A stretch of 63,358 nucleotides of DNA, the filler included, from Craspedostauros australis (Eukaryota): NCBI GenBank assembly GCA_030167865.1. It is 8 parts of 8 records of this genome, joined end to end, with 100 filler letters (N's around TTAATTAATTAA, not from the genome) between each part and the next. Parts side by side here need not be neighbours in the genome. Positions count along the whole stretch, not along the records: positions 36,581 to 45,388 come from JALAGF010005728.1; positions 45,489 to 54,988 come from JALAGF010005730.1; 6 more parts are not named here. The stretch is one strand, 5' to 3'. Position 1 is the first letter of the stretch, and the number at the start of each line of letters is the position of its first letter. The translations under genes were made by a program, and so were the position numbers. Positions 27,338 to 59,862 of the stretch are shown piece by piece. A model generated the notes under the pieces. It worked only from the letters and a program-made list of their open reading frames with translations, had not been told where the DNA came from and made no database searches.

Positions 27338-27350
27338 CTCGCCCTCAATG
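27338..27350 (-). promoter_or_regulatory. Polypurine tract (CATTGAGGGCGAG) abutting the 3' LTR
   Basis: Purine-rich tract immediately before the TG of the 3' LTR on the element strand. Confidence 0.85.
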
Positions 27351-34239: not shown

Positions 34240-34470
34240 GGAAATTCATTAACCAGCCCTTTTGAAGTGCCGATTTGCATCAACCAGCCTGTTTTGTGTT
34301 TCTTAGCGACCCAAAACGTCCAAATGTCCATACGACGTCCCGTGGACACAACATCTCACATCGACTCGCAAGTTTAGGTATAAATATAGACTACCTGCAC
34401 TACACACGAAAAGTATAAGCCACATCATACATGTTTAGCATAACCGCCATAGAATGCAATCAAATAGTCC
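34240..34470. repeat. Dispersed repeat with an inverted homologue at ~59625-59862
   Basis: AACCAGCCCTTTTGAAGTGCCGATTT...AAAACGTCC...TGGACACAA...ATCATACATGT shared in the opposite orientation on another scaffold. Confidence 0.8.
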
Positions 34471-37400
34471 ACTAAAATTTAATGCATCTAGTAAAAGGAA
34501 TAAATGGCTACCTTAGTTGTAGATGTGTNNNNNNNNNNNNNNNNNNNNNNNNNNNNNNNNNNNNNNNNNNNNTTAATTAATTAANNNNNNNNNNNNNNNN
34601 NNNNNNNNNNNNNNNNNNNNNNNNNNNNCGTGATACAACGAGGAAGTATGGCGGAAACGCTGAGTCCTCTCGAACCATCAAGCACGCAGACCCTGCGAAG
34701 TATCAGGCTGTGGATGACTTTGTTTCTCATTTCTGTTAAGCTGAAGCTCCGTTGTTTCTTCCATCTGCTGGGGTTGCATACCAGCATCCTGAACGCATTC
34801 CGAAATGGTGGCAACAAAAGCATTCCTGCACCTGACGATTGCAATCGTTGGCATCTCGTCTCAGGCATCTGGGAGTTGCTTCATGGCGTGATCTGGGCAC
34901 TCTTTGTTGTAGGGTCTGTGTGTCCTTCACAACTAACAGAACCAATGGAGTACGTGCTTCAAAGAAGGCCACTTCTTCAAATCAATCCCCAGTCCATCCT
35001 TTGTTCTCTCTGCTTCCTCGCGTGCGGGGAGTGCGATGTGTGATGGGTCGTTTGCATATGAGCACTGATGCGATCAGAGTAAACAGAAAAAGTAGAAGTC
35101 AATTGTTATGCAACTGTTTGCATGCGCCCACNNNNNNNNNNNNNNNNNNNNNNNNNNNNNNNNNNNNNNNNNNNNNNNNNNTTATGCAACTGTTTGCATG
35201 CGCCCACCTGCAGAAGTCTCTGCACCCCTGGATTCTTCGCACACTGGCAGCTGGGTGCCCATCGTTACCAGCCATACCAGTTCAGGATCCAGCTGTTGCC
35301 AAATGTTTACTCCAGAGAAAGAATGCGTACACAAGGAACCATCGATACGAACACAGAAACACGCAATGCACCGCAGCAGAGGGACAAGGGAGATTCAAAC
35401 CGTACCACTGATCACTTGAGATAGTGCTGCGTGAAGTCTCATGCGATGAGTACATGGTAGCGCCGCAACGGATATCGATATGTGCTTCAAGAGAGGCAGC
35501 AACCAACAAAAGATGCAAAAAGAGCAAAAGAGATCTGGTTGTGAGTAGGCCTTTGGATGATTGCCGCTGTTGGTTGCGTGCCGACGTAGGGTCGCTTGAG
35601 CCAAGAAGTGCAACATGTAATTCCATCTAAGATTGACGGGTGGACCACTGGCGCCACGAGTTGTCAATCAACAAATCGTGCTATATCGGCAACTCTCCCA
35701 GGGGGAAGTTCGTTGTACTCCAGAGGCATCGGTCTATCGTGCAGCGCCAATGTTCCTGCCCATGATGTGTCATTCACTTCATTGTCGCCAAACAGTCCTA
35801 TGTCTCCATTCACCACGTTTGGTTTTCGTTTGCGGTTTGAGCTCCACCGTGCTTGCCTGTAGATCTCTACCACCAGCGCCCCCTACTGTACTGCTTGCAT
35901 GCACTGNNNNNNNNNNNNNNNNNNNNNNNNNNNNNNNNNNNNNNNNNNNNNNNNNNTCTACCACCAGCGCCCCCTACTGTACTGCTTGCATGCACTGGCC
36001 CATGGAAGTACCCACACTTCTGGATTCTCCGCGCACTGGCAGTTCATGGCTGTCACCACCAGTTGTCCCAGTACATGACCTATTTGCTTGCAGGGGAGGA
36101 TCCCAAAACATAGATGACAACAAACAAAAGGGACAGAGATACGACAAAGAAATTGCGCCATACATTGCAGGAAGAGGATACAAGTAACAAAATAAATCAC
36201 CCACTGATTAACCGCTCCTTATCTACGGCTGCATCNNNNNNNNNNNNNNNNNNNNNNNNNNNNCTATGCGTGGCACGCGAAGGGGGCACGGACTCGGGTC
36301 TGTTGCGTTCCTTAATTTTGTGCTGGCGCCTGCGTTGACCGCCCCTGTGCAGTCCAGAAGCTATTGGCCACAGCCACCTTCATCCGCTTGTACAACGGCC
36401 CACCAGCAACAGGTCACCTGTAGTATGGCTGCTGCCTACTCCATCCATACCGCCAGACCTGATGCGGGACCTTGGCAGCCNNNNNNNNNNNNNNNNNNNN
36501 NNNNNNNNNNNNNNNNNNNNNNNNTTAATTAATTAANNNNNNNNNNNNNNNNNNNNNNNNNNNNNNNNNNNNNNNNNNNNATGTGTTCAGCAGGTAGTTG
36601 TTCCAAGCACTATACAGAGCATGGGTTGGACCTTTTTGTTAGTGCAAGCCTCTGCATAGTTGGACTCAATGACAGCATCGATACCATCTTCTGTGTCGAT
36701 GCCAATCCTGGTGTTGGTGTTGGCATGGTTGATGGCGATGGCGCTGTGTCACCGTTCACATCAAAGGGACACTTCTGCCCTTGTTTTGTTGGGATTTTGT
36801 GGAAACAATTTTGTCAATTTTTCGTATGATTTGGTATTATGATGCTAGTACTCGCGATGAGCGACAACAATACGCAGCATACGATAGTCCCATCGCAACG
36901 ATATCATGAAGGTATCGGTCGGAATCGTCGTTCAGTTACGACAATGGAGTTTGTCGCCTCGAGATACTCAAACGGAGATACTGCACGTAAAAATTGCATT
37001 TTATTTGCTCAATACGTGATTTCTGAGAAAGTGTAAAAGTTGTGCAAATCCTGGTGCGAAACCAACCACGCAATCCCACCGTCTCTGTCAGCGTTCACGA
37101 CGAGAATCGATCCGGCACAGAACGGATCATCTGCGTCACACGGTTCCAAATGAGAACTCCAAGCGCAACAAAGCTCGGGAGAAATGACCCAAACTCCCCT
37201 CAATTCACCCTTCAATGGGATGGCTTGCTCGTGCCATTGATAAAGTCTAAGCCATTTGATTGGCTGGAGTCGCCGGCCACGCCAAAAAATAGCCACTCGA
37301 ACCCCTCCAGTGAAACTCGAAGCTATGACCTACGAAGAATTCCTGAGAACGAAAATATGAGTCGAGAGCATTCTTTTCGCGGGAACATTTGTCATCGCCA

Positions 37401-37899
37401 AAACAACAAGTTTTAATTGGCTGGGCCAGTCATCTCCAATATCGACTAATTCGACCCTTTTTGCCGGGTGTCCCAGAGACGAACTTGGCCAGGAGGGATC
37501 GAGCCGGATGATCCAAGACAAGCTTGGAGGTGCTAGTAACCCTACCACCCAACGCAGACAAGCTATGTGTCTATTGGATTAGCCAACGATCAGTCTTCCC
37601 ATCAACACGGAGCGTGTGCGAGAGCATTCGTTCTGTGGCGATGACGATGACGATGGCCATGGTGGTGCTGTTGCAGACATTGCTGCAGAATACTGATACA
37701 GATCGTCACAACCGCAACGCTCACATGATGATCACCGTTGCCGTCAAGTATCTATTCACCGAGCATGCCAATACTCTCGCTCTCTCTCTCTCTCTCTGTT
37801 TCTGGAGAGAGACTTCGAACGATGCCGGCTGGTTGACTTGGTTCCTCACTCATTGATCGCCCAACCACAGAGACAGCCACAACCAGAAGAATCACAGCA

Positions 37900-38814
37900 A
37901 TGGCAGCATTGGCAGCAACAACGTGGTTGATGCATCAAAAGAGGATGATTGGTGCCATCTGCATCGTGTGCATGGTGCATGGTGGTGGCAACGACCTCAC
38001 TGTCGTCGCCATCCCCGTATCCTCACTCCAACGCAGCAGCAGCAGCAGCAGTCGCAGTAGCAGAAGCAACGGGAATGAGAATCACCAACCAATACGGAAG
38101 ATTGCCGTGATCGGCGGTGGCATCGCCAGTCTCTCCTTGGCGCATGCTTTCGAGAGCATCAGCAATACCGACACCAACGACACCAACGACAACAACGTCG
38201 CTTGGAAGGCATCATCCGAGGCCAAACACTTCCAGCAACAGATGCGACAGCAGATCGACGATGCCAAGATCCCCATGCACACCATCAGGCCCATCATCGA
38301 TCGATTCATCGACAAGGCCGATCGTTTCTTCGAGTTGGGGATCTACTTCCACAATCCCTTTGCGCGATGGACCAAGGCGATGATGGGCACCACCGGCAAC
38401 CGCAACGGCGACTGCAACGGCGACTGCAACGGCAACTGCAATGGAAGCACTTGCAAAGGCGTAGATGCGGCGCACGCCGTGCCACCATTCCTGGGACAGG
38501 GCGCCAATCAGGCCATCCAAGACGTCTACTGTCTGGCCAACGCCATTCGCCAATACAATATGCAGTGCGATGAACGAGCCAATGGCGGGATCAGCCTCGA
38601 AGACATCCTGCATATAGAATACAAGGACAAGAGATGGTCCACCACCACAAGCATCATGGACATCACAGGTGTCACGGCCAAGGCTGGTCTGCTGGGATAC
38701 CTGGAGGCCTCATCGGGGCCGTTGGCCAAGTTCTGGGACGTGTCCTTCTTCACCATGGACAAGACGGGCGTTGCGAAGAAGATCTTTTTGGATGCTGCCG
38801 TTCCAAGGGTATGA
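37900..38814 (+). pseudogene. FAD-dependent monooxygenase (salicylate hydroxylase / zeaxanthin epoxidase-like family), internally deleted copy
   Basis: KIAVIGGGIASL (GxGxxG ending in S) and DAAHAVPPFLGQGANQAIQD are present. The middle, including the DG motif seen in copy 2 (~41950-42790), is missing. Confidence 0.75.
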
Positions 38815-39210
38815 GAATGTATGGAGCGGTGTGAAATCAAGATGCGGCGAAGATAAGTTCCGTGGACTCTTTCGCTTTCTGTTAATAGACATTCCATTCT
38901 TCTCACCAACCACAACACGCAATCAACTGATCAACCAACCATCTCCCTTATCCTGTGCCACGACCACGAGCACACATGCATCGAGTACGCCCATCCTCAA
39001 CCAACGCATTATCATTATTCGGAGTAAGGCTGCACAGCATCCTATTGTACTCGTGACATGGAACGTACTCGTACTATCTCAATCATCGGTGCACTCCGCC
39101 TTGCTTTGCAAACTGTCGAGTGGAACCTTCGTCGCTTCGACGAGTGTGGCCAGTCCGCTATCACTTCCGATGCTCTGGCAGAAGCGCTTTGGTCTATTCC
39201 AGACGACATC

Positions 39211-40581
39211 TCAGCCTTGCTGGTTCTTCTCGTGGGCAATGGAATCCTTCTCAACTTGGACGAGCTGATCCGCTCTCTTGTCGTCCCATGCCTGCTTCAA
39301 CATCTCACTGCCCTGCAGAAGAAGATGGAAAGTCTCGCTCATGGGATCCTTTGCACCCAATGTATTCCAACGTCGGCGTCTTGTCATCAGCATCTTCCCA
39401 AACAGGGCCAGCGGCCGCGACCATGTTGGAAGCGAACACAGTGCTGCTCTCACCTTGTTGCAATAATTTCGCCGCAAGATACGTCTAACAAGTGCATAGT
39501 ACCAATGGGCATGTTCGTTGGGCGGGCGTGGTCGAATGCGGAGATAGGTGAGTTGGGTAGTCTGCTCCAAGGCTTGCTGAAGTGCTTCCATTTGTGCTGG
39601 GAGGGTCTCAGGCGGAACCGTGGACATGTCGGGCTTCCAGAACTCCAAGTATGTGAGACATGACAAGCTCTTGTTTCCCAGAAGCGATATCAAAATGTCG
39701 AACCATGCACCCCGCTGTTGTCGCGATAGCGCGTCCCAAATACCAGAAACCTCTAGGCTCTTCAGGTGTGATGCATCTGAAAGGAGTTTGATGATCCGCT
39801 CGATTTCTTGTTGTGAGTAGATTCGTTGGCCGTTAGAGAGCCGCGACCAATCGATTTCGAGCTGGTTGATGTGCTTGTTTGACTGGAGTAGCTTTGCCAA
39901 GCTATCGCAAGTGATACGGGTGCTATCAAAGGATACTCCGGTGATGCCGCAGTTGTTTGGAGACAGCCATCTGCACAAATCAGCGCCCCCATTGGCGAGC
40001 TTACACNNATTAAAGTCAACGTATTTGGAGTTTTGAGAGATGTTGAACATGAGCTTGTCGCAATCAACAAGATCACAAAAATACAAACCCACACAATTTG
40101 TCACAAGAGGGATGTCGTGGAGCTGCTTCATCTCCACGAAGGACTTGTCCAATTCGATGCATTCGTCGAATGAAGATTTGAGTGGATGTTTAGCAGCCAA
40201 TCGAATTACGAAGCGAATCGCTCGCTTGTCTTCTCCGAATTGGTCAATGGTGCCGAATTCCAGATACAGGGATCCAATGCACATCTGCCTGTCGCCCTTG
40301 TCAGAACTGTCTCTCAGCAGAACACGAGGTGACAAAGTAACGTTCTTGTGCCGCTTCACCATCGATTTCAAGTCATCAAAAGTGAATCCTGATTTGATCG
40401 CCATGTCCCAGTGTTCCTTCCGCTTGGGTGTGACACTGTAGCAGTCGATCTGCTTTGCTGTTGAGCACTGCGCGTTGAACACGGTCTTCGATGACAGCTC
40501 TTTGCCATGGAGCTGTTTCCAAAATGCCTCGAAGTGAAGGTCATGGTTGGTGTTGGCGACATCATCCATGTTGCAGTTCAT
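39211..40581 (-). CDS. LRR/RNI-like protein, paralogue A, 456 aa
   Basis: Repeated xLxLxx-type strands (IGSLYLEF, INQLEID, LKSLEVSG, LTYLEF, LTYLRI) separated by helical segments. Homologous to 44342-45388 and 53778-54988. Confidence 0.7.
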   Translation of the reverse strand: MNCNMDDVANTNHDLHFEAFWKQLHGKELSSKTVFNAQCSTAKQIDCYSVTPKRKEHWDMAIKSGFTFDDLKSMVKRHKNVTLSPRVLLRDSSDKGDRQMCIGSLYLEFGTIDQFGEDKRAIRFVIRLAAKHPLKSSFDECIELDKSFVEMKQLHDIPLVTNCVGLYFCDLVDCDKLMFNISQNSKYVDFNXCKLANGGADLCRWLSPNNCGITGVSFDSTRITCDSLAKLLQSNKHINQLEIDWSRLSNGQRIYSQQEIERIIKLLSDASHLKSLEVSGIWDALSRQQRGAWFDILISLLGNKSLSCLTYLEFWKPDMSTVPPETLPAQMEALQQALEQTTQLTYLRIRPRPPNEHAHWYYALVRRILRRNYCNKVRAALCSLPTWSRPLALFGKMLMTRRRRWNTLGAKDPMSETFHLLLQGSEMLKQAWDDKRADQLVQVEKDSIAHEKNQQG

Positions 40582-41659
40582 CCGTTTCTTGTTGTCACTG
40601 TCGTCGCAGTTGTTACGGCTGANNNNNNNNNNNNNNNNNNNNNNNNNNNNNNNNNNNNNNNNNNNNNNNNNNAATCGTATGAGTAGAGCTGACAGAGCAG
40701 GCAGAGTATGTAGAGTAGGTATGTGGTCCCAAATCAGTTGCGCTTGGATGGCGATTATGAGCCCATCTGCTCAAGTTTGCTGTCCTCCATGTCATGATCC
40801 TGTGCATTGATCACGAAGCAACATATCGTCAGTCAACACGCCTCCATGGACTTGCGCAGTTCCGCCACTGTGTATGACATGCTATGCGATGGTATGGTAT
40901 GGCGTGGTATGATATGATATGACCGTGGACAGCTACATCATGATCCGAAGCTGACTAGCTCGCTCGCTCGCACGATACGACCTTCGATGGTACCCAACTT
41001 GTCCACGCTGTGAAGTTGTGCCTCTTCATGTGATACCATTGTTTGTGTAATATGAGTAGGCACATCCCTCTGTGATGGTCTTGGGGGAGTCAACCATTAT
41101 GCCATACGAATGCATACTATCCGTACTCCGATCGGTACAGTTCTTCGACAGTTGGATGTCATCGAACGACTCCAATGGGCGGATCCGCAATGTGACGAAT
41201 CCACCACGATGACTTCTTCGGTGGACATCGAAGGCGATTCTCACGTTTTGCTGAGAGGATGATGACGATGACGATGGTGACATCACTCGTGTTTCAATCG
41301 ACAACAAACGTATCCAGGACTCATCTCGCCTCACCCAATCATTGCGAACTCTGTGACGAATGATCAACCATCAGTCTTCCCATCAACACGGAGCGTGTGC
41401 GAGAGGATTCGTTCTGTGGCGATGACGATGACGATGGCCATGGTGGTGCTTCTGCAGACATCGCTGCAGAAGACTGAGACAGATCGTCACAACCGCAACA
41501 CTCACTGATGATCACCGTTGCCATCAAGCGTCTATCCGCAGAGTACGCAAACCAGCACTCTCTCTCCAGAGACTTCGAGCAATGCCGGCTGGTTGACTTG
41601 GTTCCTCACTCATTGATCGCCCAACCACAGAGACAGCCACAATCAGAAGAATCACAGCA

Positions 41660-43420
41660 ATGGCGGCATTGGCAACAATGACACCAACGACGTGGTTGAT
41701 GCATCAAAAGAGGATGATTGGTGCCATCTACATTGCGTGCATGGTGCATGGTGGTGGCAACGAACTCACTGCCATCCCCGTCGTCCCCGTCATCCTCACT
41801 CCAACACAGAAGCGAAGCAGCAGAAGCAGCAGCAATGGGAGTGGGAATGAGAATCGCCAACCAATACGGAAGATCGCAGTCATTGGTGGTGGCATCGCCG
41901 GTCTCTTCTTGGCGCATGCTTTCGAGAACAACAACGGCAACGATGCACACAACATTGATGTGATATGCTTCGATGTGACATGCTTCTATGCGAGACCAGA
42001 ATTGGACGTCGTTGCAGGTGTGGGTGTGCAGCTTAACGGTGGCATGGCGGTGCTGAAGCAGATCTATCCGTCCCTGCAGCGTGCGGCGGCCAATGTCACG
42101 CTGCCGTTGACGACCGTGCGATGCAAGACCAACAACTGGATCTCATTCAACGAGGAGTTCCAGCTGCTGCACTTCAATCTCAGACAGATGACCATGGATG
42201 CGGAGTGACGCCACGACGAAGGCGCTGATCCAGGAGGAAGGCGAGGTCATGGCGTACCGTCCTCCATCATGCGAAGAGCGTTGCAGGAGGCGCTGCTTGA
42301 GGAGGTGGAGGTGACGCCCGTGCATCTTGGCAAAGCAAGTGATGAATGTGGAATATGAAAAGATGGAGAAGCGAGATGCCATCCATCTTGCGTTTGAAGA
42401 TGGAACGAGGGATGGGTCGTACTGGTACGATATGGTGGTGGGCTGCGATGGTGTCAACAGCGTCGTCAAGCAGTACAACAACGGCGATGTGCGGTCGCCA
42501 TCAGACAGTCAACGCAATTCTCCAGCTGTGTACTCGGGCATCCGCATCCAGTACGCCATCCAGGATGTCGCCAAAGAAGACAGCGACAACAACAGCGACC
42601 GCGGTAGCGACGACGGAATGAACACAACTACACATGATTCCGTCCTGCAGCAACACTTTGGCAACGGCACCTACTGCCTCGCTGGTAACTACCGCAGCGG
42701 CATCAAGCGCGGCACCACCCGATGCTGCTTCATCATTTTCCGCAACGCCTTGCTCTTCTCCAAGCCCGCCGTCAGCAAGGATGACGAGAACGTCACTTGG
42801 AAGGCATCATCCAAGGCCGAGCGCATCCAGCAACAGATGTGACAGCAGATCGATGATGCCAAGGCCTCCACGCACGCCACAAGGACCATCATCGATCGAC
42901 TCGTCGACAAGGCCGATCGATTCTTCGAGTTGGGGGTCTAGCTCCACAATGCCTTTGCGCGATGGACCAGATCGATGATGGCCACCAACGGAAATCGCAA
43001 CTGCAACCGCAATGGAAGCACCGGTGCAGACAAGGTCGCCATCCTGACTGTCTGCGGTGATGCGGCGCACGTCCATGTCCCCGTTCCTTGGACATGGCAC
43101 CAATCGGGCCATCCAAGATGCCTACTGTCTGGTCAACGCCATTCAGCAGTACACCATGCATTACAATGGACAAGCCAATGGTGGCAACAGCCTCAAGAAC
43201 ATCCTGAAGACAGAATACAAGGACAAGCGATGGCCTACCACCACGACCATCATGGACATCACGGCCACCTAGGGCATCATGGCCAAGGTTGGTCTGCTGG
43301 GGTACCTGGAGGCCTCGTCGAGATCGTTCGCAAAGTTCCGGGATGTGTCCTTCTTCACCATGGACAAAACAGTCGTTGCGAAGAAGATCTTTCTGGATGC
43401 TGCCATTCCGAGGGTATGAG
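41660..43420 (+). pseudogene. FAD-dependent monooxygenase pseudogene, copy 2
   Basis: KIAVIGGGIAGL, VVGCDGVNSVVK and CGDAAH motifs lie in different ORFs. Stops include TGA 42840-42842 (CGA in copy 1), and there are several frameshifts. Confidence 0.85.
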
Positions 43421-44341
43421 AATGCATGGAGCGGCGCGAAATCGCGCTGTGGTGCAGAAAGGTTCTGTGGACGGCTTTCGCTTGTTGTTGATGGACCAGC
43501 CATACTCATACGATCTAGACATTCCATACTTCTCACCAACCACAACACGCAATCACAAGCGAACACTTCCCAATCAACCAATCAATCAACTGATCAACCA
43601 ACCATCTCCCTTTCTCTGTGCCACGAGCACGAGTACACATGCATCGAGTACGCCCATGCTCGACCAACGCATTATNATTATTCGGAGTAAGGCTGCACAG
43701 TATCCTATTGTACTCGTGACATCGAACGTACTCGTACTATCTCAATCATCGGTGCACTCCGCCTTGCTTTGCAAACTGTCGAGTGGAAGCTTCGTCGCTT
43801 TGACGAGTATGGCCAGTCCGCTGTCACTTCCGATGCTCTGGCAGAAGCGCTTTGATCTATTCCAGGCAGCATCNNNNNNNNNNNNNNNNNNNNNNNNNNN
43901 NNNNNNNNNNNNNNNNNNNNNNNCTGTGGACGGCTTTCGCTTGTTGTTGATGGACCAGCCATACTCATACGATCTAGACATTCCATACTTCTCACCAACC
44001 ACAACACGCAATCACAAGCGAACACTTCCCAATCAACCAATCAATCAACTGATCAACCAACCATCTCCCTTTCTCTGTGCCACGAGCACGAGTACACATG
44101 CATCGAGTACGCCCATGCTCGACCAACGCATTATCATTATTCGGAGTAAGGCTGCACAGTATCCTATTGTACTCGTGACATCGAACGTACTCGTACTATC
44201 TCAATCATCGGTGCACTCCGCCTTGCTTTGCAAACTGTCGAGTGGAAGCTTCGTCGCTTTGACGAGTATGGCCAGTCCGCTGTCACTTCCGATGCTCTGG
44301 CAGAAGCGCTTTGATCTATTCCAGGCAGCATCTCGTCTTTG

Positions 44342-45388
44342 CTAGTTCTTCTCGTGGGCAATGGAATCTTTCTCAAGTTGGACGAGCTGATCCGCTCTCT
44401 TGTCGTCCCATGCCCGCTTCAACATGTCACTGCCCTGCAGCAGAAGATGGAAAGTCTCGTTCGTGGGATCCATTGTACCCATTAGACCCACTGCATCCAT
44501 TCTACCCCGACGTTTGTTTGTTCTCATCAGCATCTCCCCAAACAGGGCCAGTGGCCGCGACCATGTTGGAAGGGAACACAGCACTGCTCTCACCTTGTTG
44601 CGATGATTTCGCCGCAAGATACGTTCAACAAGCGCATCGTACCAAGGGGCATGTTCGTTGGGCGGGCGTGGTCGAATGTGGAGATAGGTGAGTTGGGTAG
44701 TCTGCTCCAAGGCTTGCTGAAGTGCTTCCATTTGTGTCGAGGAGATCTCAGGCCGAACTTCAAACATGCCGAGATCCCAGAACTCCAAGTATGTGAGAGA
44801 TGACAAGCTCTTGTTTCCCAGGAGTGATATCAAAATGTCGAACCATGTATCTTGTTCTTGTCGCGATAACCCGTTCCAAATACCAGAAATCTCTAGGCTC
44901 TTCAGGTGCGATGCATCTGAAAGGAGTTGGATGATCTGGTCGATTTCTTGTCGTGAGTAGGTTCGTTGCCGGTTGTAGTCCCCAAAGAAACTGATTCCGA
45001 GCTTGTTGATGTGCTTGTTTGACTGGAATAGCGTTGCCAAGCTATCGCGAGTGATAAGGGTGATTTTAAAGGATACTTCGGTGACGCTGCAATTGTTTGG
45101 AGACAGCCATCTGCACAAATCAGCGCCCCCATTGGCGAGCTTACAGCATTCAAACTTAACGTATTTCGGGTTTTGGGAGATGTTGAACATGAGTTTGTCG
45201 CAATCAACAAGATCACAATGCAACAATTTTACACGATGTGTCACAAGAGGGATGTCGTGGAGCTGTTTCATCTTCGGAAAGGGTGGACTCAAGCAGATGC
45301 CTCCGTCGAATGAAGATTTGAGTGGATGTTTAGCAGCCAATCGAAGTACGAAGCGAATTGCTTGCTTGTCTTCTTCTCCGAATTGGTC
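44342..45388 (-). CDS. LRR/RNI-like protein, paralogue B (5' truncated by scaffold end)
   Basis: Colinear with paralogue A; frame open to the N gap. Confidence 0.7.
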   Translation of the reverse strand, partial: DQFGEEDKQAIRFVLRLAAKHPLKSSFDGGICLSPPFPKMKQLHDIPLVTHRVKLLHCDLVDCDKLMFNISQNPKYVKFECCKLANGGADLCRWLSPNNCSVTEVSFKITLITRDSLATLFQSNKHINKLGISFFGDYNRQRTYSRQEIDQIIQLLSDASHLKSLEISGIWNGLSRQEQDTWFDILISLLGNKSLSSLTYLEFWDLGMFEVRPEISSTQMEALQQALEQTTQLTYLHIRPRPPNEHAPWYDALVERILRRNHRNKVRAVLCSLPTWSRPLALFGEMLMRTNKRRGRMDAVGLMGTMDPTNETFHLLLQGSDMLKRAWDDKRADQLVQLEKDSIAHEKN

Positions 45389-45718
45389 NNNNNNNNNNNN
45401 NNNNNNNNNNNNNNNNNNNNNNNNNNNNNNNNTTAATTAATTAANNNNNNNNNNNNNNNNNNNNNNNNNNNNNNNNNNNNNNNNNNNNCTTGTCCACCGA
45501 TGAGACTATCCCTTTGTAGCGTGCTTCTTTTCATCCGAAGGTCGTACCTTGCCGACACATCAACGACGACGACCCCCTGATGACACCTCGTCTCATCCTG
45601 CCGTAATTCTCGTACACCAAATCGCCCACTGCCATACTCGTATGAATACTGACACAATGGCATTCCTATCAATTATACTATGCAATGCGATACAACTCTA
45701 TGCTCGTTATCATCTCAG

Positions 45719-46766
45719 ATCCTTCACGAAGAACTACTTCTTGACGCATTTCCATTCCGACCACTACGGTGGCATCACATCCGCATGGAACCAAGGCATC
45801 ATCTACTGCTCGCTGCCGACCGCGAATCTGGTCAATGCACAGCTCGGAGTTGACAAGAAATACCTGCATCCATTGCCCATGATGGTACCCACGGTCGTGG
45901 AGAGCAGGGGCAAGGCCGTGACTGTGACGTTGCTGGATGCCAACCATTGTCCCGGTGCCGTCATGTTCCTCTTCCAGGTCGGCACGAAGCATATCCTCCA
46001 CGTTGGCGATTTCCGATGGAGCCGCGACATCATGTTCCATCAGCAGTACCTCAAGCCATTTCTCTTCAGCCGGAAGTTGCGGCTCGATGAGCTGTTCCTG
46101 GATACGACGTACTGCAATCCCAAGTACACGTTGCCGTCGCAGGAGCAGACCGTCCAGGCAACGCTCAAGGTCGTGCAGGATGAAGTGAAGCGGGCGAAAG
46201 AGAGCGGCAGCAGAGTCCTCCATTTGTTCGGTGCGTACACGATCGGGAAAGAACGCATGTACATGGCCGTTGCCCAGCACTTCGGATGGCGCATCTTCGT
46301 CGATAGGCGGCGGTACCGTGTCTTGCAAGCATCAGGGTGGCCCCCAGAGCAAATGACACTATTCACGACGACGCCGACCAACGACAGCTGTATCTGGGTT
46401 GTGCCTATGGGAGACCTCAACATGAAGAAGCTCCCGAAATATTTTGAGACTGCAATGTCGCTCTCATTGGCGTCGCCTGGCGTGGCACCATGCGATCGTA
46501 TCGTTGGGTATTCGCCGACGGGCTGGTCGCTGTCGGCCAAGCCAGGACGCGGACTGGTGGGCAAACGATCCTCCGGCAAAATCACCATCTACTCTGTTCC
46601 CTACAGCGAGCATTCCAGCTTTCCCGAACTCGTGGACTGCTTGAAATGCCTGAACCCCAGGAGGACAATTCCCACCGTCTCCGTATCGAAGACGAAGGAG
46701 CAGCTGGCGTTGCTCGAAAAGGGGGCGAGAGAAACGCAGACCACAATTCAACTTCGGTCCTCATAG
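45719..46766 (+). CDS. SNM1: DNA cross-link repair nuclease SNM1/PSO2 (metallo-beta-lactamase + beta-CASP), last exon; 5' part missing
   Basis: FLTHFHSDHYGG, DANHCPGA, LHVGDFR, LDTTYC, GAYTIGKER, PTGW, VPYSEHSSFPEL; acceptor CATCTCAG ending at 45718. Confidence 0.9.
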
Positions 46767-46909
46767 CTCGTCGAGATCTGTTCCTTTCGAGTATTTTACA
46801 GACGCATTTGATGAAACCTCATCGTGCTTACGAGTATGTCAGTATGTGTACATGTGTACATGTATGGATGGTGCTCGCCCACTACGAGTATCCCTCTGCG
46901 AGAACACCA

Positions 46910-49900
46910 TCATTGTCTTCTGCCGGGAGAGCTGTCAGGAAGATCATAGCACGCTTCATCGCCCATCATGTCACAGCAGATCGTGGTGTTGCAGCAGACG
47001 CTGCAGCAATCACACGTAACGGCCGGTGGCTCACCATCATCGAATGGTAGGCATTGGGCTGAGTATTCACCGGCATTGCGTTGCTGCGTTGGATCTGTTG
47101 CGTTGCAAACAATCGAATTGATGTCGCCGGTGACACTGATGTTGACCATTGTCAAGAGTTCCAGATCGAGAGTTGCGGAGAGCTGATTGAGTTCCGTTGG
47201 GATGGTACCAATAAAGTCGTTGTAGCCGAGGTAAAGCCTCCGAAGGTTGCTGAGTTTGCCAAGTTCGGATGGGATTTCTCCAAACATGACAGCTGATTCT
47301 GCGTATGAGTACGCACGAGTACGACAATGAGAGAAGGTGATTGTGATGATGTGAAATAGACGAAGGAGGTTGGCCATTGTGAGTTACGACCTGTCGTGGA
47401 CAAGCACCCAATGCTCATCAGCGACTTGGATAGGTCGATGAACTGATCGAGAGGAATGGGTTGAATATGCCAAGCACACATCAAACATGCGCCAAGCATG
47501 TACCAAGCATGTACCAAACGAGTCCGTGCTCAGACGAGTATCGTGACTTACCCAGATCCAATCGAGTCAACTTTGTGAGCAACCCTATTTCTGATATCAG
47601 CGGTCCTTTGACTTCGTTCCCAGCTGTGTGAAACAAAATGTGGAGGTGCGAGCAATGTATGAACATTGTGTGAGGATGCCATCTGAGCCAGAACATGGAA
47701 CAAGACCGTCCGGTCACGGTGGATTGGAGTGTGTCTGCGGTATGCAATACACATGGATACTTCGATTGCTGAGATGCATACTTACAGAGATTGAGATGGC
47801 GCAGATCAGTGAGCAACCCCATCTCTGTCAACATGGAATTCTTCATTCCGTTGTTGGCTGGAGGTTGGGAATCAAATAGAATGGGTGAGTCAAGATGATG
47901 AAAACAGAGTGCCGAGGTGAGATAAAAGGAGGAAAGGTGAAAATCAGACGATTCATCTGCTCAATGCACACCAAGAGCGACACGAAGGACACAGAGTCCA
48001 TCAAAGCGATTAACAGAAGCATACGTATCACTGTGTGTGCGCACTACTCACGTGCGTTGATTTGATCAATGTTGACGCTTTCTCTGTGGTCGCAGCTGAG
48101 TCCTATCCAATTGCAGGTCTCAAGTTCGCTCAACCAACCATTTTTCACGATCCAATTTGGTCCATCATACTGATAGTATGTAGCGACCATGATGTACCGC
48201 TCCAGCAACTGTTGTGCGGGGAGGGTGGGAAAGTCCAGCTTGGCGGGATCATCTTGGACCAACCACCACAGTGCACGATTGTACGGCGATTGGGGTTCGG
48301 AAACTGCAGCCGCTTGGCTTTGCGTGATGTTGGGATACAGCAAGCCCACCAGAAGATCGTATCGTTCCAAAAGTAGCCGCTGTTCCTCTGTGGAGGGTGC
48401 TGATGATGGTGCTAACGATGGTGTCAACGTCGGCTGTTGAGATGGTTGCCATGACGGAGCATCTGATTGCGTAACGGACGGCCTTCCTGATGATAGGATT
48501 GGTGCTGTCGGACCGCCGGAATCACTTTCACCTGTCAGAAGTACAGCGATGATCACAACACCAGCAACGATGAAGACGAAAGCGATGGAACAAATCCATT
48601 GAGCCCGGCCCCGTTCCATCCCGAAAATTGTCTTGTGGTCATCTTGCGATTCAATGGCTTCCGCAGTCACAATCATCATTTTAGATTGTTCGGAGCCTTG
48701 CACAGCCGCAGTTTCTTCGTCGACTGTCCTCGTTGCGACACCAGGAATTGTCGTGCTTTCGTCAAGACCATTCTCATTTCGAGCAGTTGTTGATGTTGCT
48801 GCAACGCTGAGCCGTGTGCTCCCATCGCCATGGCGCTCCAGATCTTGTCGCTTCTCCATCATCTGTTGCCGTTGCGCTTCGAGCTGTTGAGTACGTGCCT
48901 CCAGCTCCTGCAACCGCTCTCTGGCACGGATGGCTTCTGGCGACATGAAGTCATCGTCTCCGACTAAGTGCCCTTCGACCATCTGCGTTTGTCCCCGCTT
49001 CATGGATGGCATGTCACTACTATCGTCACCGTGAATATGGGCTGCCAAGGCGTTGTCCGATTGCGCTTCATCGTTCCAAGCATCTTCGGAACTATTGTAG
49101 TCATCATCGGATCTGCCTGTGTTGTTAACCCCAGCGACGCGGATAGCTCCTGGCCGACGCAAATCGAAGGAGGGTGTATCGGACGGCGATGCAGGTGCGG
49201 TTGCGGCAGCAGAAGGCATTGATGAATTGTGAGGTCGGGGTCCCGTTTCCATTTCCGTTCCTGCTTCTGGTTGCGTCGATGCCAATAGATGCGCTTGATG
49301 TGTTGTCGACGACGTGTCCATTGCCATCCCATCTGCGTGATCGTCATACGCCACATCATAGTTTTCCCTGACATCTCTCATCATGGGCTTTTCCTGTTTC
49401 GCGTTCGGGTCCGACCGAAGAGAGGCAACCTTGGATGGGTTGGGGTTCCCTTGTGTTGCAGCATGCAACTGCTCCTCGCGTCGCGATTTCGTCGGTGTGT
49501 TGCTTTTGTTCGCTCCTGGTTTGGTCGCCAAGCCTGTTTCATCCTTGATGTATTGTGGCATCGCTGCTTCCCGTTTCGCTTGCGGCATTCTATCGTCGGA
49601 TGCCGCAGTATCCAACTGGCGTTGGGTTGGTGCTGACGCGAACTGCTTGCTGTGTGCCGACTCTGGAGCAGACGCAAACAGACTTGGCGGAGACGATTGG
49701 AACCTTTGCTGCTGCTCCTTTGCGTGTTGTGAGTGTTGTGCGTGGTGGACAGAAGTCGGCTGTTCTGCCACTGCTCCAAAACGCGATGATCTCGCGCTGC
49801 GTCCGTAGCTGGAGCTCGGTACGGTCACCAACCCGCTCACTTCCTCAGACAGCGCCAATTTCGCAGCTGATTTTGCAGCTCGCATGGCAACCGAGTTTCG

Positions 49901-50158
49901 TGATGTCATCGTTCGATCGGTCGCCGATGATTGATCGAGAGGAGCGACTCTGTCTGCATCACCGTCGCCGCCATGATCTTGTTGACTATTTGCATCGTAC
50001 GCAACTCCTGCATTGGGTCGTCTCTGCCGCTGCACTTCGTTGAGCAACTCCAGCACCTCGTTGGGATCGTCTTGGACATCTTCCTCCTCCTCCTCGAAGC
50101 TGTCGTCCCTCGCTTGTCCGTGGTTGCTGGCGTTTCGGCGATGGTTGGGATCGCTCAT
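46910..50158 (-). CDS. Single-pass (type II) LRR surface protein without a kinase domain; complement(join(46910..47298,47552..47623,47786..47857,48052..50158)), 879 aa
   Basis: Long disordered N-terminus, TM WICSIAFVFIVAGVVIIAVLL, PS-rich stalk, cap motif SPYNRALWWL...ERYIMVATYY...GPNW...CNWIGLSC, plant-type LRRs (GEIPSELGKLSNLRRLYLGYNDFIGTIPTEL), Cys cap CDCCSVC. Phase-1 GT-AG introns; exon total 2640 nt. Confidence 0.85.
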
Positions 50159-52214
50159 GGTCCCAGTTCTTCATTCAATTCTATTCCACTCTGCTGTTTC
50201 TCGTTGTTGAGCTTGGTCCAACTCACCGACTTCTGCCAAACCTCTCTTTCGCGATACCTGTCGATCGACGGGCTCAGATCTGTGTTGATGCGTTCTTGTG
50301 GGTGGTCATCGCAGTCGCATCCTTCGTCGGCCTGGGACACTCAACATTTTGTCCAGAAGACCCATCTTGAACGTGATTGAAAGTTTTCGACACAACATTT
50401 TCTCTCTTTTGACAGAACTGATCGAGAAAACGATAGTGTTGCTCATTTTTACTAGTTTCGAAAATTTGAGAAATAGCGGTTTCCTTGGTTGTCAACAGTG
50501 ACACCTGGCAAAATCCAGAAAATTGGTCCATGTCCGACTAATTCGACCTCTATTTCGTTGAGCTGCGCGAAACACTTCGTTGGGCCTAATCGAAACTGTG
50601 ACAATGACCATCCATCCTAGAACACCCATCAATTTGTCCAAACTAAAGTGAAAAAACCAGTTTGAGTCTTACAGGACACGAATTAGAAATAAGTATTTTT
50701 TGCCAAAGAAAGTTACAGATTCTGTAGCACATGAACATTGAAGTAAGAACTTGCATCTAACGGACTATGTCGGACATATACGGACAGACTCGACCAACTT
50801 GGACAACTCAGGACAAATCTGGACAACTCCGGACAGCACTAGAACACAAGAGATTACCGAATCCAATAGAACAGATCTAGTGTCTCGTGGCTTGAGTGGA
50901 GGCCAATTTTTTGGTAACCATTGGTAATTTTTGGTAACTATAATAGAGCCCAAACGAAATGGCTGTTATCTTGTTGGCTGTTGTTTAGCTGTGGGCAGAG
51001 GCTTGATTGGCAAGCGGTCCGAACGTGAGTCTTCTGGATCACAAGTAGTCAATTGAGAATACTGATGATNNNNNNNNNNNNNNNNNNNNNNNNNNNNNNN
51101 NNNNNNNNNNNNNNNNNNNCTTGATTGGCAAGCGGTCCGAACGTGAGTCTTCTGGATCACAAGTAGTCAATTGAGAATACTGATGATGGGTGAAGAAACG
51201 TGCAGATTATGAGATTAGTGCTAAAGTTCTTCCCTGCGGGGAGGATCTCTTGTGGTGTCCTGAGTGACAGTGTGTATGGGTCATGTAGCCCAAGTACCGT
51301 GGGTCAAGATCCCTTGGTTGAATTCTGTGAGAGACAAAGGGTGTTGATGTGCATTGCTGAGGCGCTGTTCCCATGTGTTGGTGTTTTGGCGATGGAGGGT
51401 GTCAGTGGCTTGGTTATCGGAACCCTTCTGGTTCCTTGACGCGGGTTCCAAAGATCTGCTTCAATGTTCTGGATCTGTCCCCAAACGTGGGGGCCGGTGA
51501 AGTATTCATTCGACCTACTGGAATGCTGACGAGTCGGATGATTCGTAGTCTCTCTCTAAGGTGGGTACTAGTTTAGCTCTATTAAACTAGTCGTACGAGT
51601 CGAATTTGACGTAGACGACGGTACATTTTGTACGTCAGTCCCACGCGAAGTGGCCCCAAAACCATCATTTTGACACAAACCTCCTTGGCAAGTCCATGCC
51701 GCTCCGTTTGTTTGAGCTCTCCTTTGGAGAACATTCCCATGTGCGGCTTGTAATCACCCTCTCTAACTTTGGTGGCGATTGGTTGGGTAGTGGTCGAGAT
51801 CTGCTTGTTTCTCTGGAGCCGCCACTCGTTCTTGGCATTCACGAATGCCAATCACCGCGATGTATCGTGGCGAATTTCTGTGTGCCCCAGCGCGTGTTAA
51901 CACGTGGTTGAAATGATCACAAAACAATGTGGTGCCAACCGATGCGTTCCTCACATGCTTGTCGAGATGTACATGTGAGTATATGTCGAGATGTACGTGT
52001 ATATGTGCATCGATCACCCGTTACTCTCTAATACGCACTTGGACGGTACAACTATATTCGTGTCGATAGTATGCTGTGATTCGTCAGAATTACAGCGGAA
52101 ATGGAACACACGAAAAGGGGCAAGATTTCTGGAGGAAATTTGCAANNNNNNNNNNNNNNNNNNNNNNNNNNNNNNNNNNNNNNNNCATCAATGGTACCAA
52201 GAGAATCTCGAGGT

Positions 52215-53314
52215 ACTTCCCAACTAAACCTCAGATGACGATATCATCTGACAGACTCATGCATCACCAATGGAACGTGACATCTGGAGAGCAGAAGGAC
52301 GCCTACTGACGTCGACAGGATGGCATCGTGTCACCATGTCGACATCTGTCTCCAAGTCAGAGCAGGAGGCGAAGATCTGATGACCAACAGGATCATGGAT
52401 ACAGAAGGTGAACTTCAAATGGTAAGTACTCATGGAGTAGGAGCCAGTACTGAATGAACGGAGTGTCGAATGTGGAGTACGCATTGAACACGGAGTATCG
52501 TGTAGCACGAGCACACGATGTTGAGAGAGAGAATACAGAGAGGAGCAAGAGAGCATCTCGCGTACCGACTCATAGTCGGAGATCGAATCTACAAAACAGA
52601 TTGAAGCACCGAGAGCATCGGGCAAGAGAACGGGCATACACCGAGAGGATCGGAGTAACCAAGTAATGAAATAGCAAACGAACGACTATCAACCAACACC
52701 ATCTTCCACGATCGTAGGTTACCGTGAGCGGAACTTGCCAACATGCATTGTGAGTTGATCAGATTGAGATGTAGGATGAAGAAACAATGCTCAGTTGGGT
52801 AGTGTGGCTCTGCACTGATCATAAGAGGTTCAGTGTTGAGAACGGACGATCTCTTCCTCTCTCTCTCTCCACTATCTGTAGTAGTTGTTCTATGCTTGAG
52901 TACAAAGGCTTGACATCTTGGTTGAGGTTGTGTTTGAGAACACAGGTTGTCAGGCGACGGGAATTGGGGTTAGATTCCCTGCTCATGTTGAAGAAGGGAG
53001 GATCTCCTTGTTGTCGTCGAGTCAAGTTGGCAGTTGACATGGCTGACAATGGAATCAGAATTACGTGCGACACGAGATTTCAGAGGAGCATATAGTTCCC
53101 GGAGTGCATTGATCTCGGTGATTCAAGTGAGGTTTGAATCAGCAGTGATTCATGAGTAAGAGTGGGAGAAGGAGGGAGAAGGAGGGAGAATAGGAGTTTT
53201 CGTATTTGTAGGTGGAAGGTTTCGCGCCAAAATTGACGCGCCAAAAACAATTTGATAGTGCGACACGGGATGCACTAAGTGGAAAGTAGTCTGTTCTTTA
53301 GATGAACTTCAACT
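52215..53314. mobile_element. Dispersed repeat, probably a degenerate transposable element, copy 2
   Basis: Homologous to 2408-3336 in the same orientation, with the same right end. Confidence 0.6.
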
Positions 53315-53777
53315 GTTGCCAACGAGAAAATTCCGAAATTGCGTCCGTACGTCGTCCGTATGAAAAAGGCCGACAAGGGGTTAAAACAGGCATCGAGATG
53401 AACGGAAAGCGGAGACCGTTTGCGTGCAATGAACACATCAACAGAGAGCTCTCACTCTCCTCTTTCTAATGATGTAAAGATGTCAGGCACCGGCCATCAA
53501 CTCATCGAATGGCAGCTTGTGCCGTCGGCGATATGCCAATGGTTACCAATAATTACCAAAACGTGCCAAAAACCGGAAATTAGCCAATAGCCACCAGACA
53601 TTCCATACTTCTCACGAACCACAACACAAATACTACTACAATCGCAATCATAATCACAAGTGAACACCTCCCAATCAATCAACCTCCCAACCAACCAACC
53701 ATCTCCCTTTTCCATCCTACTCGTACAACAACACACTCACATGCACCAGAGTATCAATACTGTCTTCATGTGCTGTT

Positions 53778-54988
53778 CTAATTACTCGACGACCAGAGTA
53801 CTCCAAGGCAATGCAGGATCGCATCAATCATCGATGTGCCGTTGTTGTCCACACAGCAAGCAGAAGCATCATCAACTCGGACGAGCCGATCCGCTCTCTT
53901 GTCATCCCACGCCTGTTTCAACGCCTCACTGCCCTGCAGCAGAATGTTGAAAGTCTCGCTCGTGAGATATATTGTACTCATTAGACCCAGCGCATCCATT
54001 GTACTCCGTTTGCTTGTTCTCATCAGCATCTCTCCAAACAGGGCCAGTGGCCTCGACCATGTCGGAAGGGAACACAGCACTGCTCTCACCTTGTTGCGAT
54101 GATTTCGCCGCAAGATACGTCCAACAACCGCATTGTACGAATGGACGTGTTCGCCAGGCGGGCGTGATCGAATGTGGAGATAGGTGAGTTGGGTAGTCTG
54201 CTCCAAGGCTTGCTGAAGTGCTTCCATCTGTGCCGAGAGCGTCTCAGGCGCACCTTTAAACATGCCAGGATTACCATCGACACAGTATGTGAGAGATGAC
54301 AAGCCCTTGTTTCCCAGGAGCGAGATCAATGCGTCGAACATGATCATCTGCTTTTGTTGCGATGGCATGTCCCAGCAACAGGAAACCCTGAGCTTCTTCA
54401 AGTGTGATGCATCTGAAAGGAGTTTGATGATCTGGTCGATTTCTTGTTGTGAGTAGATTCGTCGGGCGCCGTAGATCACACCGAAATCGATGTCGAGCTT
54501 GTTGATGCGCTTGTTTGACTGGAATAGCTTTGCCAAGCTATCGCAAGTGATACAGGTGTCCAAAAAGGAGACTTTGGTGATGCTGCAATTGTTTGGAGAC
54601 AGCCATCTGCACAGATCAGCGCCCCCATTGGCGATCTTACTGATATGAAACATAACGTATTTGGAGTTTTGGGAGATATTGAACATGAGCTTGTCGCAAT
54701 CAACAAGATCACATGAATGCAAATGCACACGATGTATCACAAGAGGGATATCGTGGAGCTGCTTCATCTCCACGAAGCATTGAGGCAAGCGGATACATTG
54801 ATCGAATGGAGATTTGAATGGGTGTTTGGCAGCCAATCGAAGTCCGAAGCGAATCGCTTGCTTGTCTTCTTCTCCGAATTGGTCATTGCTGCCGAATTCC
54901 AGATTCAGGGATCGAATGCCTATCTGCCCGTAGCCCCTGTGACAACCATCGCTCAGTAAAATACAAGGCGATAAAGCAACGTGTTTGT
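53778..54988 (-). CDS. LRR/RNI-like protein, paralogue C (5' truncated, altered C-terminus)
   Basis: Frame is open from the scaffold end (KHVALSPCILLSDG...IRSLNLEF...LAAKHP). Colinear with A and B up to DDKRAD, then a different tail. Confidence 0.7.
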
Positions 54989-56081
54989 NNNNNNNNNNNN
55001 NNNNNNNNNNNNNNNNNNNNNNNNNNNNNNNNTTAATTAATTAANNNNNNNNNNNNNNNNNNNNNNNNNNNNNNNNNNNNNNNNNNNNAGTGCGTATGAG
55101 AGAATAGCGGGTGAACGATGCACATATACACGTACATCTTGATATATACTCACATGTACATCTCGACAACTGTTCATGATGCTCTTGGTATCTGTTGGTA
55201 GCATTATACCATGAGGTCGCGCGGGGAACAAAATACAGATGCCTATTGCCGCCGAGGAGTTGATTGCCTCCAATGGCAACCCGCGCAACAACTTTCCATT
55301 CCAGGTGCACGATGATAAACTAATAGGGACAGTGCCATTCCATTTCACACAGACCCCTGGTCAGGCCGTCTTTCACCTGTACTGCCAGGATGCAGCAGCT
55401 CACATCTTCCCTGCTGATCCCAACCTCAATGGTCACAGCGTAGAAGATGAGTTCAAATCCTCCCTCCGCTGCCCCTTGTCCAGCATCATCTCCAAAACAC
55501 CAAACCCAACAAGCCTATCCTCTTTGAAATATTTCTTCTTCTGGATGAATCAGCCTTGGCTCAGCAACAACAATCAACGTGGAGGGAATTCCAAAAATGT
55601 TACATACCATCTTGAAGGATCCAGACAGGTCATCTCAAGATGCGTTCGTGAGTAGAGCAAAACCATCCACACACATGCACAAGATCATCTGAACACCTTT
55701 ATTGACCTCTAAAATTCAGAACAGCTTGTGGAGGAGCTGAAAGCAAAGATCACGAAGGTGGAAGAGGAAGTGGGGACAAGGAAAGCACAGACAGTAGCCC
55801 ATGAAGAAAGCAAAGACGATGCCCCCAAGAATGCCAATGAACACATGGGGCCAAGGTAGTTGATGCAAGCACACCGAACCAAAATGGAGGCTCTCACTAT
55901 TAACTGGTCATCCCACAAGCGAAAACGGCGAGATTCGCAACTGGGATTCGCGTCTATCTTCAAAGCGGTCATTGTGAATCCCTCCATCTCTATCAGCAAA
56001 AAACCGAATAGTGCTAAGTACATTACTCCCGTAGCCCCCACTATCTATAAATTTCACTTGTGTTCCGTTCAGCAATCGCAT

Positions 56082-59624: not shown

Positions 59625-59862
59625 GATGGACTATTTTCCTGCATTCTATTAAGAGTATTACAGACATGTATGATATGGTTTGTACTTTTTCGCGTGTGGT
59701 GTTGGCGTTCTACGTTTATCTACTAGCCTTGGAAGCCGATGCGAAACCATTGTGTCCATGGGACGTCGCGTGGACATTCGGACGTTTTGCGCCACTAAGT
59801 AATTAAAAATCAGGCTGGTTGGTGGAAATCGGCACTTCAAAAGGGCTGGTTCGTGAATTTCC
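59625..59862. repeat. Dispersed repeat, inverted homologue of 34240-34470
   Basis: Its reverse complement aligns over ~230 bp with many substitutions. Confidence 0.8.

Follow-up and report, generated by a model that had tools for sequence, protein, structure and literature searches.

We analysed a stretch of 63,358 nucleotides of nuclear DNA (the window) from the draft genome assembly GCA_030167865.1 of the diatom Craspedostauros australis, which contains 30 runs of N. Its minus strand carries three paralogous reading frames, A, B and C, each of them unbroken across its assembled length, that encode proteins with predicted leucine-rich repeats (LRRs); with copy A as tblastn query, exactly these three places were found in the window. 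In these copies, positive diversifying selection acts on the x positions of the xxLxLxx repeat strands and on the loops that directly follow them, and purifying selection on the hydrophobic scaffold and the C-terminal tail.

Three paralogous genes and their decayed neighbours

Only copy A (protein P0001) is known whole (Table 1), and its N-terminus, MNCNMDD..., agrees with the start of the independent relative P0002 described below; two undetermined letters at 40007-40008 leave one X residue in the protein. The 5' ends of B and C are cut by N gaps with a recurring signature of 44 N, 12 bases and 44 N, which is a scaffolding artefact. A preliminary description of the locus gave the limits of A and B as found here, but the frame of C opens at 54986 rather than at 54988, a position that is out of frame, and both B and C are truncated at the 5' end. 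A and B share 76% of their amino acids and 87.2% of their DNA, A and C 67% and 81.2%, respectively; the DNA identity of B and C is 83.7%, and amino acid identity across the three pairs spans 67-76%. Copy C lies 8.4 kb beyond the A/B duplication, and its C-terminal tail is longer and divergent.

Copies A and B belong to two units of a segmental duplication that align in blocks of 84.4%, 79.8% and 87.2% identity, and each unit carries, in addition to the LRR gene, the remnant of a FAD-monooxygenase. The second monooxygenase contains stops and frame changes, and the first, which is still open, has lost about 820 bp and matches the Pfam family FAD_binding_3 at profile positions 291-318 only. Since the monooxygenase pair shares the A/B duplication, it serves as an internal control for the open LRR frames. 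With the 135 (A-B), 220 (A-C) and 185 (B-C) nucleotide differences that were observed placed at random, stop-free frames are expected with probabilities of 0.0029, 0.0001 and 0.0009, and the indel events in the three pairs (3, 4 and 1) are all in frame. The earlier statement that all three frames stay open while the co-duplicated monooxygenases decayed is thus borne out for both kinds of gene (chance P <= 0.003 for the frames). Two stretches of 409 bp, 43465-43873 and 43924-44332, that are 99.8% identical lie on either side of a gap of 50 N, and this pair is apparently a duplicate made by the assembly and not a biological one.

Repeat fold and selection on the strand positions

Eight repeats with an LxxLxLxx(N/C/T)xL core are visible in the alignment, with an irregular spacing of 22-38 residues between anchors and with C, T or S at position 9 in the repeats R2-R4. 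The L4/L6 anchors of A are found at residues 142/144, 164/166, 188/190, 216/218, 241/243, 276/278, 309/311 and 347/349, and the strands that DSSP assigns in an AlphaFold2 model of A at residues 141-144, 161-166, 185-190, 215-218, 240-244, 275-281, 308-314 and 346-349. The model, which was built from a shallow alignment of four sequences, shows strand/helix alternation over residues 140-385. In Foldseek, all eight matches with E <= 0.001 were LRR proteins or LRR-bearing complexes (NLRC4, NLRP3, cytoplasmic-lattice NLRPs and leiomodin LRRs; best E 3e-4). Likewise, every VIA-align row was an LRR protein (Z 14.3-12.3, 207-281 residues aligned), among them an axonemal LRR protein, ribonuclease inhibitor (2bex_A, Z 13.8, 241 residues aligned, root-mean-square deviation 4.8; 1dfj_I, Z 13.4), NLRP9 (Z 13.7), CARMIL, NLRP3 (Z 13.2), SKP2 and NOD2 (Z 12.3). 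The neighbours in the ESM Atlas, to be read as leads only, are diatom clusters and RanGAP, LRR_6 and LRR_TMOD-LMOD clusters. Membership in the LRR group is based on motif and fold, because no curated profile reaches its threshold. Since all structural matches are LRR proteins and the LxxLxLxx(C/T) core is present in eight repeats, we conclude from the predicted model that A, B and C are alpha/beta LRR proteins of what we take to be the ribonuclease-inhibitor or cysteine-containing class. The LRR-like fold proposed earlier is also that of the model, a solenoid of LRR-type strands and helices.

The framework segments and the variable patches that the preliminary description had quoted were all found in the alignment. 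In the five frameworks (68 codons), none of the three pairs shows a nonsynonymous difference, as compared to 5, 7 and 8 synonymous ones. The synonymous divergence (dS) of the frameworks, 0.126, 0.184 and 0.214, is close to the gene-wide values of 0.151, 0.271 and 0.234, and it can therefore be concluded that they are kept by purifying selection on the protein rather than by homogenisation. Near-invariance thus holds at the level of the protein, but the frameworks had been called almost identical at the DNA level as well, which is a slight overstatement. Homogenising gene conversion of the frameworks was considered and rejected on account of this ordinary synonymous divergence.

The variable positions are concentrated on the strands. 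With the five x of xxLxLxx taken from each of the eight repeats, 39 codons were usable. Of these, 27 vary, as opposed to 97 of the 300 other codons (Fisher p 1.3e-5) or, within the LRR domain, 52 of 175 others (p 7e-6), and three different residues occur at 13 of the 39 x positions vs 19 of the 300 other codons (p 6e-6). The nonsynonymous divergence (dN) at the x positions is 0.48, 0.60 and 0.52 in the three pairs, in contrast to 0-0.03 at L4/L6, so that the hydrophobic residues predicted to be buried are indeed kept while the positions predicted to be exposed change. This x-position dN amounts to 2.2-3.2 times the gene-wide dS and is also larger than the divergence seen in the flanks of the A/B duplication, both non-coding and pseudogene (79.8-84.4% identity). 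The dS of the x codons (0.13, 0.33 and 0.26) is like that of the whole gene, and local hypermutation was rejected on this ground. The C-terminal region behaves differently from the strands, with a proportion of nonsynonymous differences of 0.03-0.09 in the windows 371-400 and 441-450; an indel-prone basic linker (residues 399-420) interrupts it.

Codon models agree with these counts. The ratio dN/dS (omega) of the whole gene, 0.76-0.92, hides strong heterogeneity: In the likelihood-ratio test (LRT), the site model M2a is superior to M1a (LRT 54.6, p 1.4e-12; omega2 8.4 on 18% of sites), and this is also the case if terms for instantaneous double and triple nucleotide changes (multi-hits) are included (LRT 17.2, p 1.9e-4). 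Removal of the linker and the tail, which leaves 311 codons, gives an LRT of 54.8, or of 20.7 with the multi-hit terms (p 3.3e-5). In a partition model with shared neutral branch lengths, omega is 4.2 at the x positions and 0.97 at the rest (LRT against omega_X=1 46.0, p 1.2e-11); with multi-hits, the values are 3.4 and 0.88 (LRT 22.8, p 1.8e-6). Sixteen sites have a posterior above 0.9, and eight of them are x positions (hypergeometric p 1e-4). High posteriors for omega>1 were found in patch R1 (0.99 at residue 143 and 1.00 at residue 145), R2 (0.99, 0.97 and 0.99 at residues 165, 167 and 168), R4 (1.00 at residue 219) and R5 (0.99, 0.96 and 0.92 at residues 246, 248 and 251). In the R6/R7 region (alignment columns 276-300), singletons of C account for 23 of the 34 variable nucleotide sites. 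The site patterns of the three taxa comprise 109 C, 62 A and 54 B singletons and 18 three-state sites. Four outcomes had been named beforehand as speaking against the earlier proposal, i. e. a dN/dS of 1 or less at the patches, scattered variable residues, no solenoid in the model and no transcription, and none of them was observed: omega exceeds 1 at the x positions with and without multi-hits, the variable residues sit on the strand x positions and the following loop, the model is a solenoid, and family members are transcribed (see below).

Table 1. Position of the LRR paralogues, their parts and further features in the window (residue numbers refer to copy A; patches are given as A / B / C).
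Feature	Position	Strand	Remarks
Copy A	39211..40581	-	complete 456-amino acid open reading frame (P0001) including stop; ATG at 40581, stop 39211-39213
Copy B	44342..45388	-	348 codons and stop; 5' end lost in N gap 45389-45488
Copy C	53778..54986	-	402 codons and stop; 5' end lost in N gap 54989-55088
LRR solenoid core of A	39526..40170	-	residues 138-352; eight predicted strand/helix repeats
Patch R1	40141..40164	-	residues 140-147; ECIELDKS / GGICLSPP / QCIRLPQC
Patch R2	40078..40101	-	residues 161-168; TNCVGLYF / THRVKLLH / IHRVHLHS
Patch R3	40003..40026	-	residues 186-193; KYVDFNXC / KYVKFECC / KYVMFHIS
Patch R4	39916..39942	-	residues 214-222; TGVSFDSTR / TEVSFKITL / TKVSFLDTC
Patch R5 and long loop	39826..39867	-	residues 239-252
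Patches R6, R7 and intervening helix	39613..39762	-	residues 274-323; variation mostly C-specific
Conserved C-terminal helical region	39214..39525	-	residues 353-456; low-confidence predicted helices
Segmental duplication unit 1	37584..40245		monooxygenase and LRR copy A; pairs with 41365-45388 (self-blastn)
Segmental duplication unit 2	41365..45388		monooxygenase pseudogene and LRR copy B (self-blastn)
FAD-monooxygenase remnant 1	37900..38814	+	open 304-amino acid reading frame; lacks about 820 bp of the middle that copy 2 keeps
FAD-monooxygenase remnant 2	41660..43416	+	pseudogene; 3 in-frame stops, 2 frame changes
44N-12-44N gaps	4535-4634, 6896-6995, 34529-34628, 36481-36580, 45389-45488, 54989-55088, 60907-61006		N-run scan
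Copia-type reverse transcriptase open reading frame	27409-30009	-	RVT_2, E 3.6e-41

Family range, domain content and known relatives of the design

An exhaustive profile search of 1.84 billion representatives found four relatives only, P0002-P0005, and, with no length limit set, no longer, fused relative. In a word-index search, the full-length P0002 (479 amino acids) is 46% identical to A, and P0003, P0004 and P0005 are 69%, 67% and 61% identical, which is about the similarity of C to A. The related full-length and transcript-derived proteins are colinear, and the additional members have the same alternation of frameworks that are constant and patches that vary. The transcriptome MMETSP1442, labelled Craspedostauros, is the source of P0004 and P0005, and the other two are JGI records; family members are thus transcribed in a raphid diatom, an outcome that applies to P0004 and P0005 rather than to A, B and C. 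Related DNA loci were confirmed for none of 391 pattern matches in metagenome contigs and for none of 52 in viral contigs, and a viral origin of the family was rejected on the latter result.

Further copies are indicated by run X1, a set of contigs of unknown kind that was used for presence only, its depths serving neither for copy number nor for a ranking of genes. On 37500-45388, 536 contigs align, 129 at >= 99%, 167 at 95-99% and 240 at 90-95% likeness; the run contains A- and B-like sequence and many diverged copies. One contig has eight differences from A within 39996-40017, i. e. in patch R3, and 10 of the 13 listed differences in the coding region of A fall into codons 162-163 and 189-196 (R2 and R3). 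The uncovered bins 37763-38025 and 41182-43022 were left uninterpreted, and the runs X2 and X3 yielded nothing. The segmental duplication, the four public members and the many X1 contigs at 90-95% fit the earlier view of an expanding family. Just upstream of A, at 40673-41181, up to 14-15 X1 contigs (at 40763 and 40791) are all unlike the letter of the window; this segment is probably a dispersed repeat, and no similar copy of it was found elsewhere in the window.

In A, B and C, Pfam detected no NB-ARC/NACHT, F-box, Roc/COR or kinase domain at E <= 1. A and P0002 are complete at 456 and 479 amino acids, and any further 5' parts of B and C would lie in the gaps; as to the F-box, residues 1-117 are modelled with a predicted local distance difference test score (pLDDT) below 50, and a very divergent one is possible there. 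No signal peptide or transmembrane segment was found: over 19-residue windows, the mean Kyte-Doolittle value reaches at most 1.18 (A) and 1.08 (P0002), and the first 30 residues are hydrophilic in both (means -0.80 and -1.25). This fits the apparently cytosolic nature that had been suggested before. The C-terminal tail, when folded alone, gave three helices with a pLDDT of 57 and a predicted template modelling score of 0.28, too poor for a structure search. A, B and C are best explained as functional genes of recent duplication in a lineage-restricted diatom family, the products of which are soluble and intracellular.

Several known systems resemble this design in part. In plant resistance LRRs, as described in the introduction of a study on brown algae, the buried leucines are conserved, the exposed x of xxLxLxx are hypervariable, and the genes are clustered in tandem and undergo birth and death (PMC3341825). 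The LRRs of plant nucleotide-binding and receptor-like proteins share with A/B/C the kept leucine framework, the hypervariable x residues and the clustered duplicates. Unlike them, the diatom proteins lack NB-ARC/NACHT, a signal peptide, a transmembrane segment and a kinase, their repeats are of the alpha/beta type (22-38 residues) whereas plant-specific LRRs have 24 residues, and no sequence homology to the plant proteins was detectable with Pfam or by profile search. The nearest stramenopile precedent that we found is the LRR-ROCO family of candidate receptors in the brown alga Ectocarpus; the same text describes a high turnover of this family and positive selection on those LRR residues that are exposed to solvent (PMC3341825). 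The ROCO proteins contain Roc-COR GTPase domains and are encoded with one exon per repeat that can be shuffled, whereas A/B/C have no Roc/COR match and unbroken frames. Ribonuclease inhibitor and the NLRP/NOD horseshoes, the best structural matches, likewise have alpha/beta repeats in cytosolic proteins; A/B/C differ from them by an identity of 12-17%, shorter and irregular repeats, the lack of NACHT and sub-threshold Pfam LRR scores. F-box/LRR proteins (FBXL, SKP2, TIR1/COI1; Z 11.3-12.5) share the cysteine-containing flavour of the repeats, and their adaptor logic of a variable binder and a constant docking part resembles the plan of A/B/C, in which no F-box was detected. In diatoms, LRR proteins are among the main tandem duplicates of Seminavis robusta (PMC7335047) and are enriched in Nitzschia putrida, where those described are secreted (PMC9054022). 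In their accessible parts, the two reports deal with expansions, expression and secretion rather than with site-wise selection on an LRR face, and the relatives of A/B/C were found in the Craspedostauros transcriptome and the two JGI records only.

The remaining features of the window are of diverse nature. Between B and C, at 46913-50170 on the minus strand, lies a different, plant-type LRR gene that is split over several frames; it has weak LRR_1/LRR_4 matches, a long N-terminal part of low complexity and a hydrophobic stretch resembling a membrane anchor, and its sequence is unrelated to the A/B/C family. A 1681-amino acid open frame at 21892-26934 (plus strand) with an AAA_16 ATPase domain (E 7e-20) and faint STAND-type matches (nSTAND6, E 0.037) encodes a STAND-like NTPase of large size; its distance from the LRR cluster is about 12 kb. 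Direct repeats of 379 bp (26962-27340 and 33577-33955, 99.2% identical) flank the Copia-type reverse transcriptase frame, and the whole element is probably a young retrotransposon of roughly 7 kb with long terminal repeats. Moreover, the window contains a 1005-amino acid frame for a fusion of guanylate/adenylate cyclase (E 1e-43) and cyclic-nucleotide phosphodiesterase (E 3e-26) at 7821-10835 (minus strand), an AlgH-like gene, and an SNM1/DRMBL gene with a best match of 64% (named matches: Nitzschia sp. Nitz4 60%, Pseudo-nitzschia (Psemu1) 57%, Thalassiosira sp. 54%). A long tandem array with a 72-bp period, interrupted by N and open in several frames, extends over 4772-6895 (copies about 82-92% alike). 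Short dispersed repeats of 75-93% identity pair 3120-3336 with 53089-53314, 34238-34527 with 59571-59864, and 51959-52039 with 55089-55169; in two of the three pairs one copy is near copy C.

A putative repertoire of variable binders

The protein plan would consist of an N-terminal region, an alpha/beta LRR horseshoe of about 8-10 repeats and a conserved helical tail. The concave sheet of each paralogue may bind a different ligand, and the constant tail may contact the same downstream partner in every paralogue; the family would then be a repertoire of binders with variable specificity. The most plausible targets would be fast-changing or diverse molecules of biotic interactions, i. e. those of viruses, bacteria, parasites or conspecifics. 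We consider a repertoire of variable binders with such biotic targets reasonably probable. A role in immunity or self/non-self discrimination is a conjecture. It is tempting to speculate, as a tentative possibility, that the family is an intracellular recognition repertoire of the diatom lineage in which a hypervariable alpha/beta LRR sensor is combined with a helical output module that is private to the family and conserved, and which would detect molecules of viruses, bacteria or parasites, or tell self from non-self among conspecific cells, and signal via the partner of the tail.

Several points weigh against reading the family as variable binders. The three proteins are known here from their genes and a predicted model, and B and C may be incomplete genes. 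The selection tests use the three DNA sequences A, B and C and our own three-taxon likelihood script (GY94, F3x4) rather than PAML or HyPhy, and the site posteriors are naive empirical Bayes estimates. Recombination and gene conversion, which can inflate such tests, are outside the codon models, and the partition is not fully blind, as the L4/L6 anchors were set from predicted strands and conserved hydrophobic residues after the alignment had been seen. Outside the x positions, omega is also high, 0.9-1.0 by maximum likelihood and 0.6-0.7 by the NG86 method. The placement of the variable residues on one solvent-facing side follows from standard LRR geometry and the DSSP strands rather than from the coordinates of the model. 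The mean pLDDT of this model is only 58 (the core is mostly at 62-91) and falls to 51-58 at residues 311-330 and 381-390. VIA-align Z scores of 12-14 are, according to the tool's own note, about what repeat proteins reach by arrangement alone. Finally, Pfam LRR scores are sub-threshold only (LRR_R13L1-DRL21, 17 bits for A and 16 bits for B at a cut-off of 27, none for C), and a profile search of the sequences in the Protein Data Bank gave eight matches with E values of 0.18-0.96 and no LRR among them.

The same variable-binder plan could also serve a housekeeping function: the proteins might be substrate adaptors of a complex such as an FBXL/SKP2-like ubiquitin ligase, to which the conserved tail or the N-terminus would dock, and their diversity would then follow changing substrates and not a dedicated role in immunity. 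Constant flanks beside a variable LRR suit an adaptor, SKP2, FBXL17, FBXL2, TIR1, COI1 and D3 are among the structural matches, and several repeats read as the cysteine-containing LRR type, the motif of which we take to be LxLxxC/TxxITxDxL and liken to the A/B/C repeats. However, Pfam found no F-box or other docking domain at E <= 1, the model has low confidence in the parts in question (residues 1-117 and the tail), and ribonuclease inhibitor and NLRP LRRs match equally well or better. We regard adaptors as rather unlikely.

Less probable still is that there has been no adaptive diversification at all, and that the surface is simply unconstrained, with omega values above 1 produced by multi-nucleotide mutations, ectopic conversion between many paralogues, a small sample or local misalignment. 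The whole-gene omega below 1, the drop of the LRT from 54.6 to 17.2 upon inclusion of multi-hits, the many further copies as possible conversion donors, and the high-posterior sites 402, 405 and 406 in the indel-prone linker would be in line with such an artefact. On the other hand, significance is kept in the multi-hit partition model and if multi-hits are allowed and the linker and tail removed. The x-position dN lies above both gene-wide dS and the divergence of the flanks, and the ordinary synonymous divergence of the frameworks gives no sign of homogenising conversion.

It is very improbable that the copies are decaying pseudogenes or chimeras of a fragmented draft assembly of a multi-copy family. 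The many N gaps, the cut ends of B and C, the NN in A, the assembly-style 409-bp duplicate and the neighbouring monooxygenase pseudogenes point in this direction, but the open frames are improbable by chance, the 68 framework codons are free of nonsynonymous changes, independent X1 contigs agree with parts of A and B except for 0-3 differences per 115-154 bases, and related full-length and transcript-derived proteins are colinear. Targeted diversification of the patches by templated donor conversion or local hypermutation, instead of selection on ordinary mutations, is just as improbable: patch codons often differ at two or three positions, the multi-hit rate parameters are non-zero and the patches recur at the repeat period, but the x codons show no increase in synonymous divergence, the window contains no donor-like patch repeats, and the buried L positions inside the patches are constant, which argues for selection on the protein rather than for mutation along a stretch of DNA.

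Viruses, algicidal bacteria, oomycetes and chytrids all attack diatoms, which are among the major primary producers. In open-access papers and preprints, we found no receptor family of diatoms that carries the evolutionary signature typical of pathogen recognition, and in the open-access literature, supplements aside, no report of site-wise diversifying selection on a diatom LRR face. If the family is indeed a recognition repertoire, it would represent a system resembling innate immunity that originated independently in diatoms, and its architecture, with no NB-ARC, TIR, F-box, ROC or kinase domain, would be new. The genes form a small, apparently intronless set in which the predicted binding residues are defined and the predicted docking tail is constant, so that searches for ligands and partners, localisation, expression under challenge and knock-outs are feasible. 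Should the role of the proteins be another one, e. g. that of substrate adaptors, the family would still be a clean case of scaffold conservation and surface diversification in a lineage-specific orphan family.

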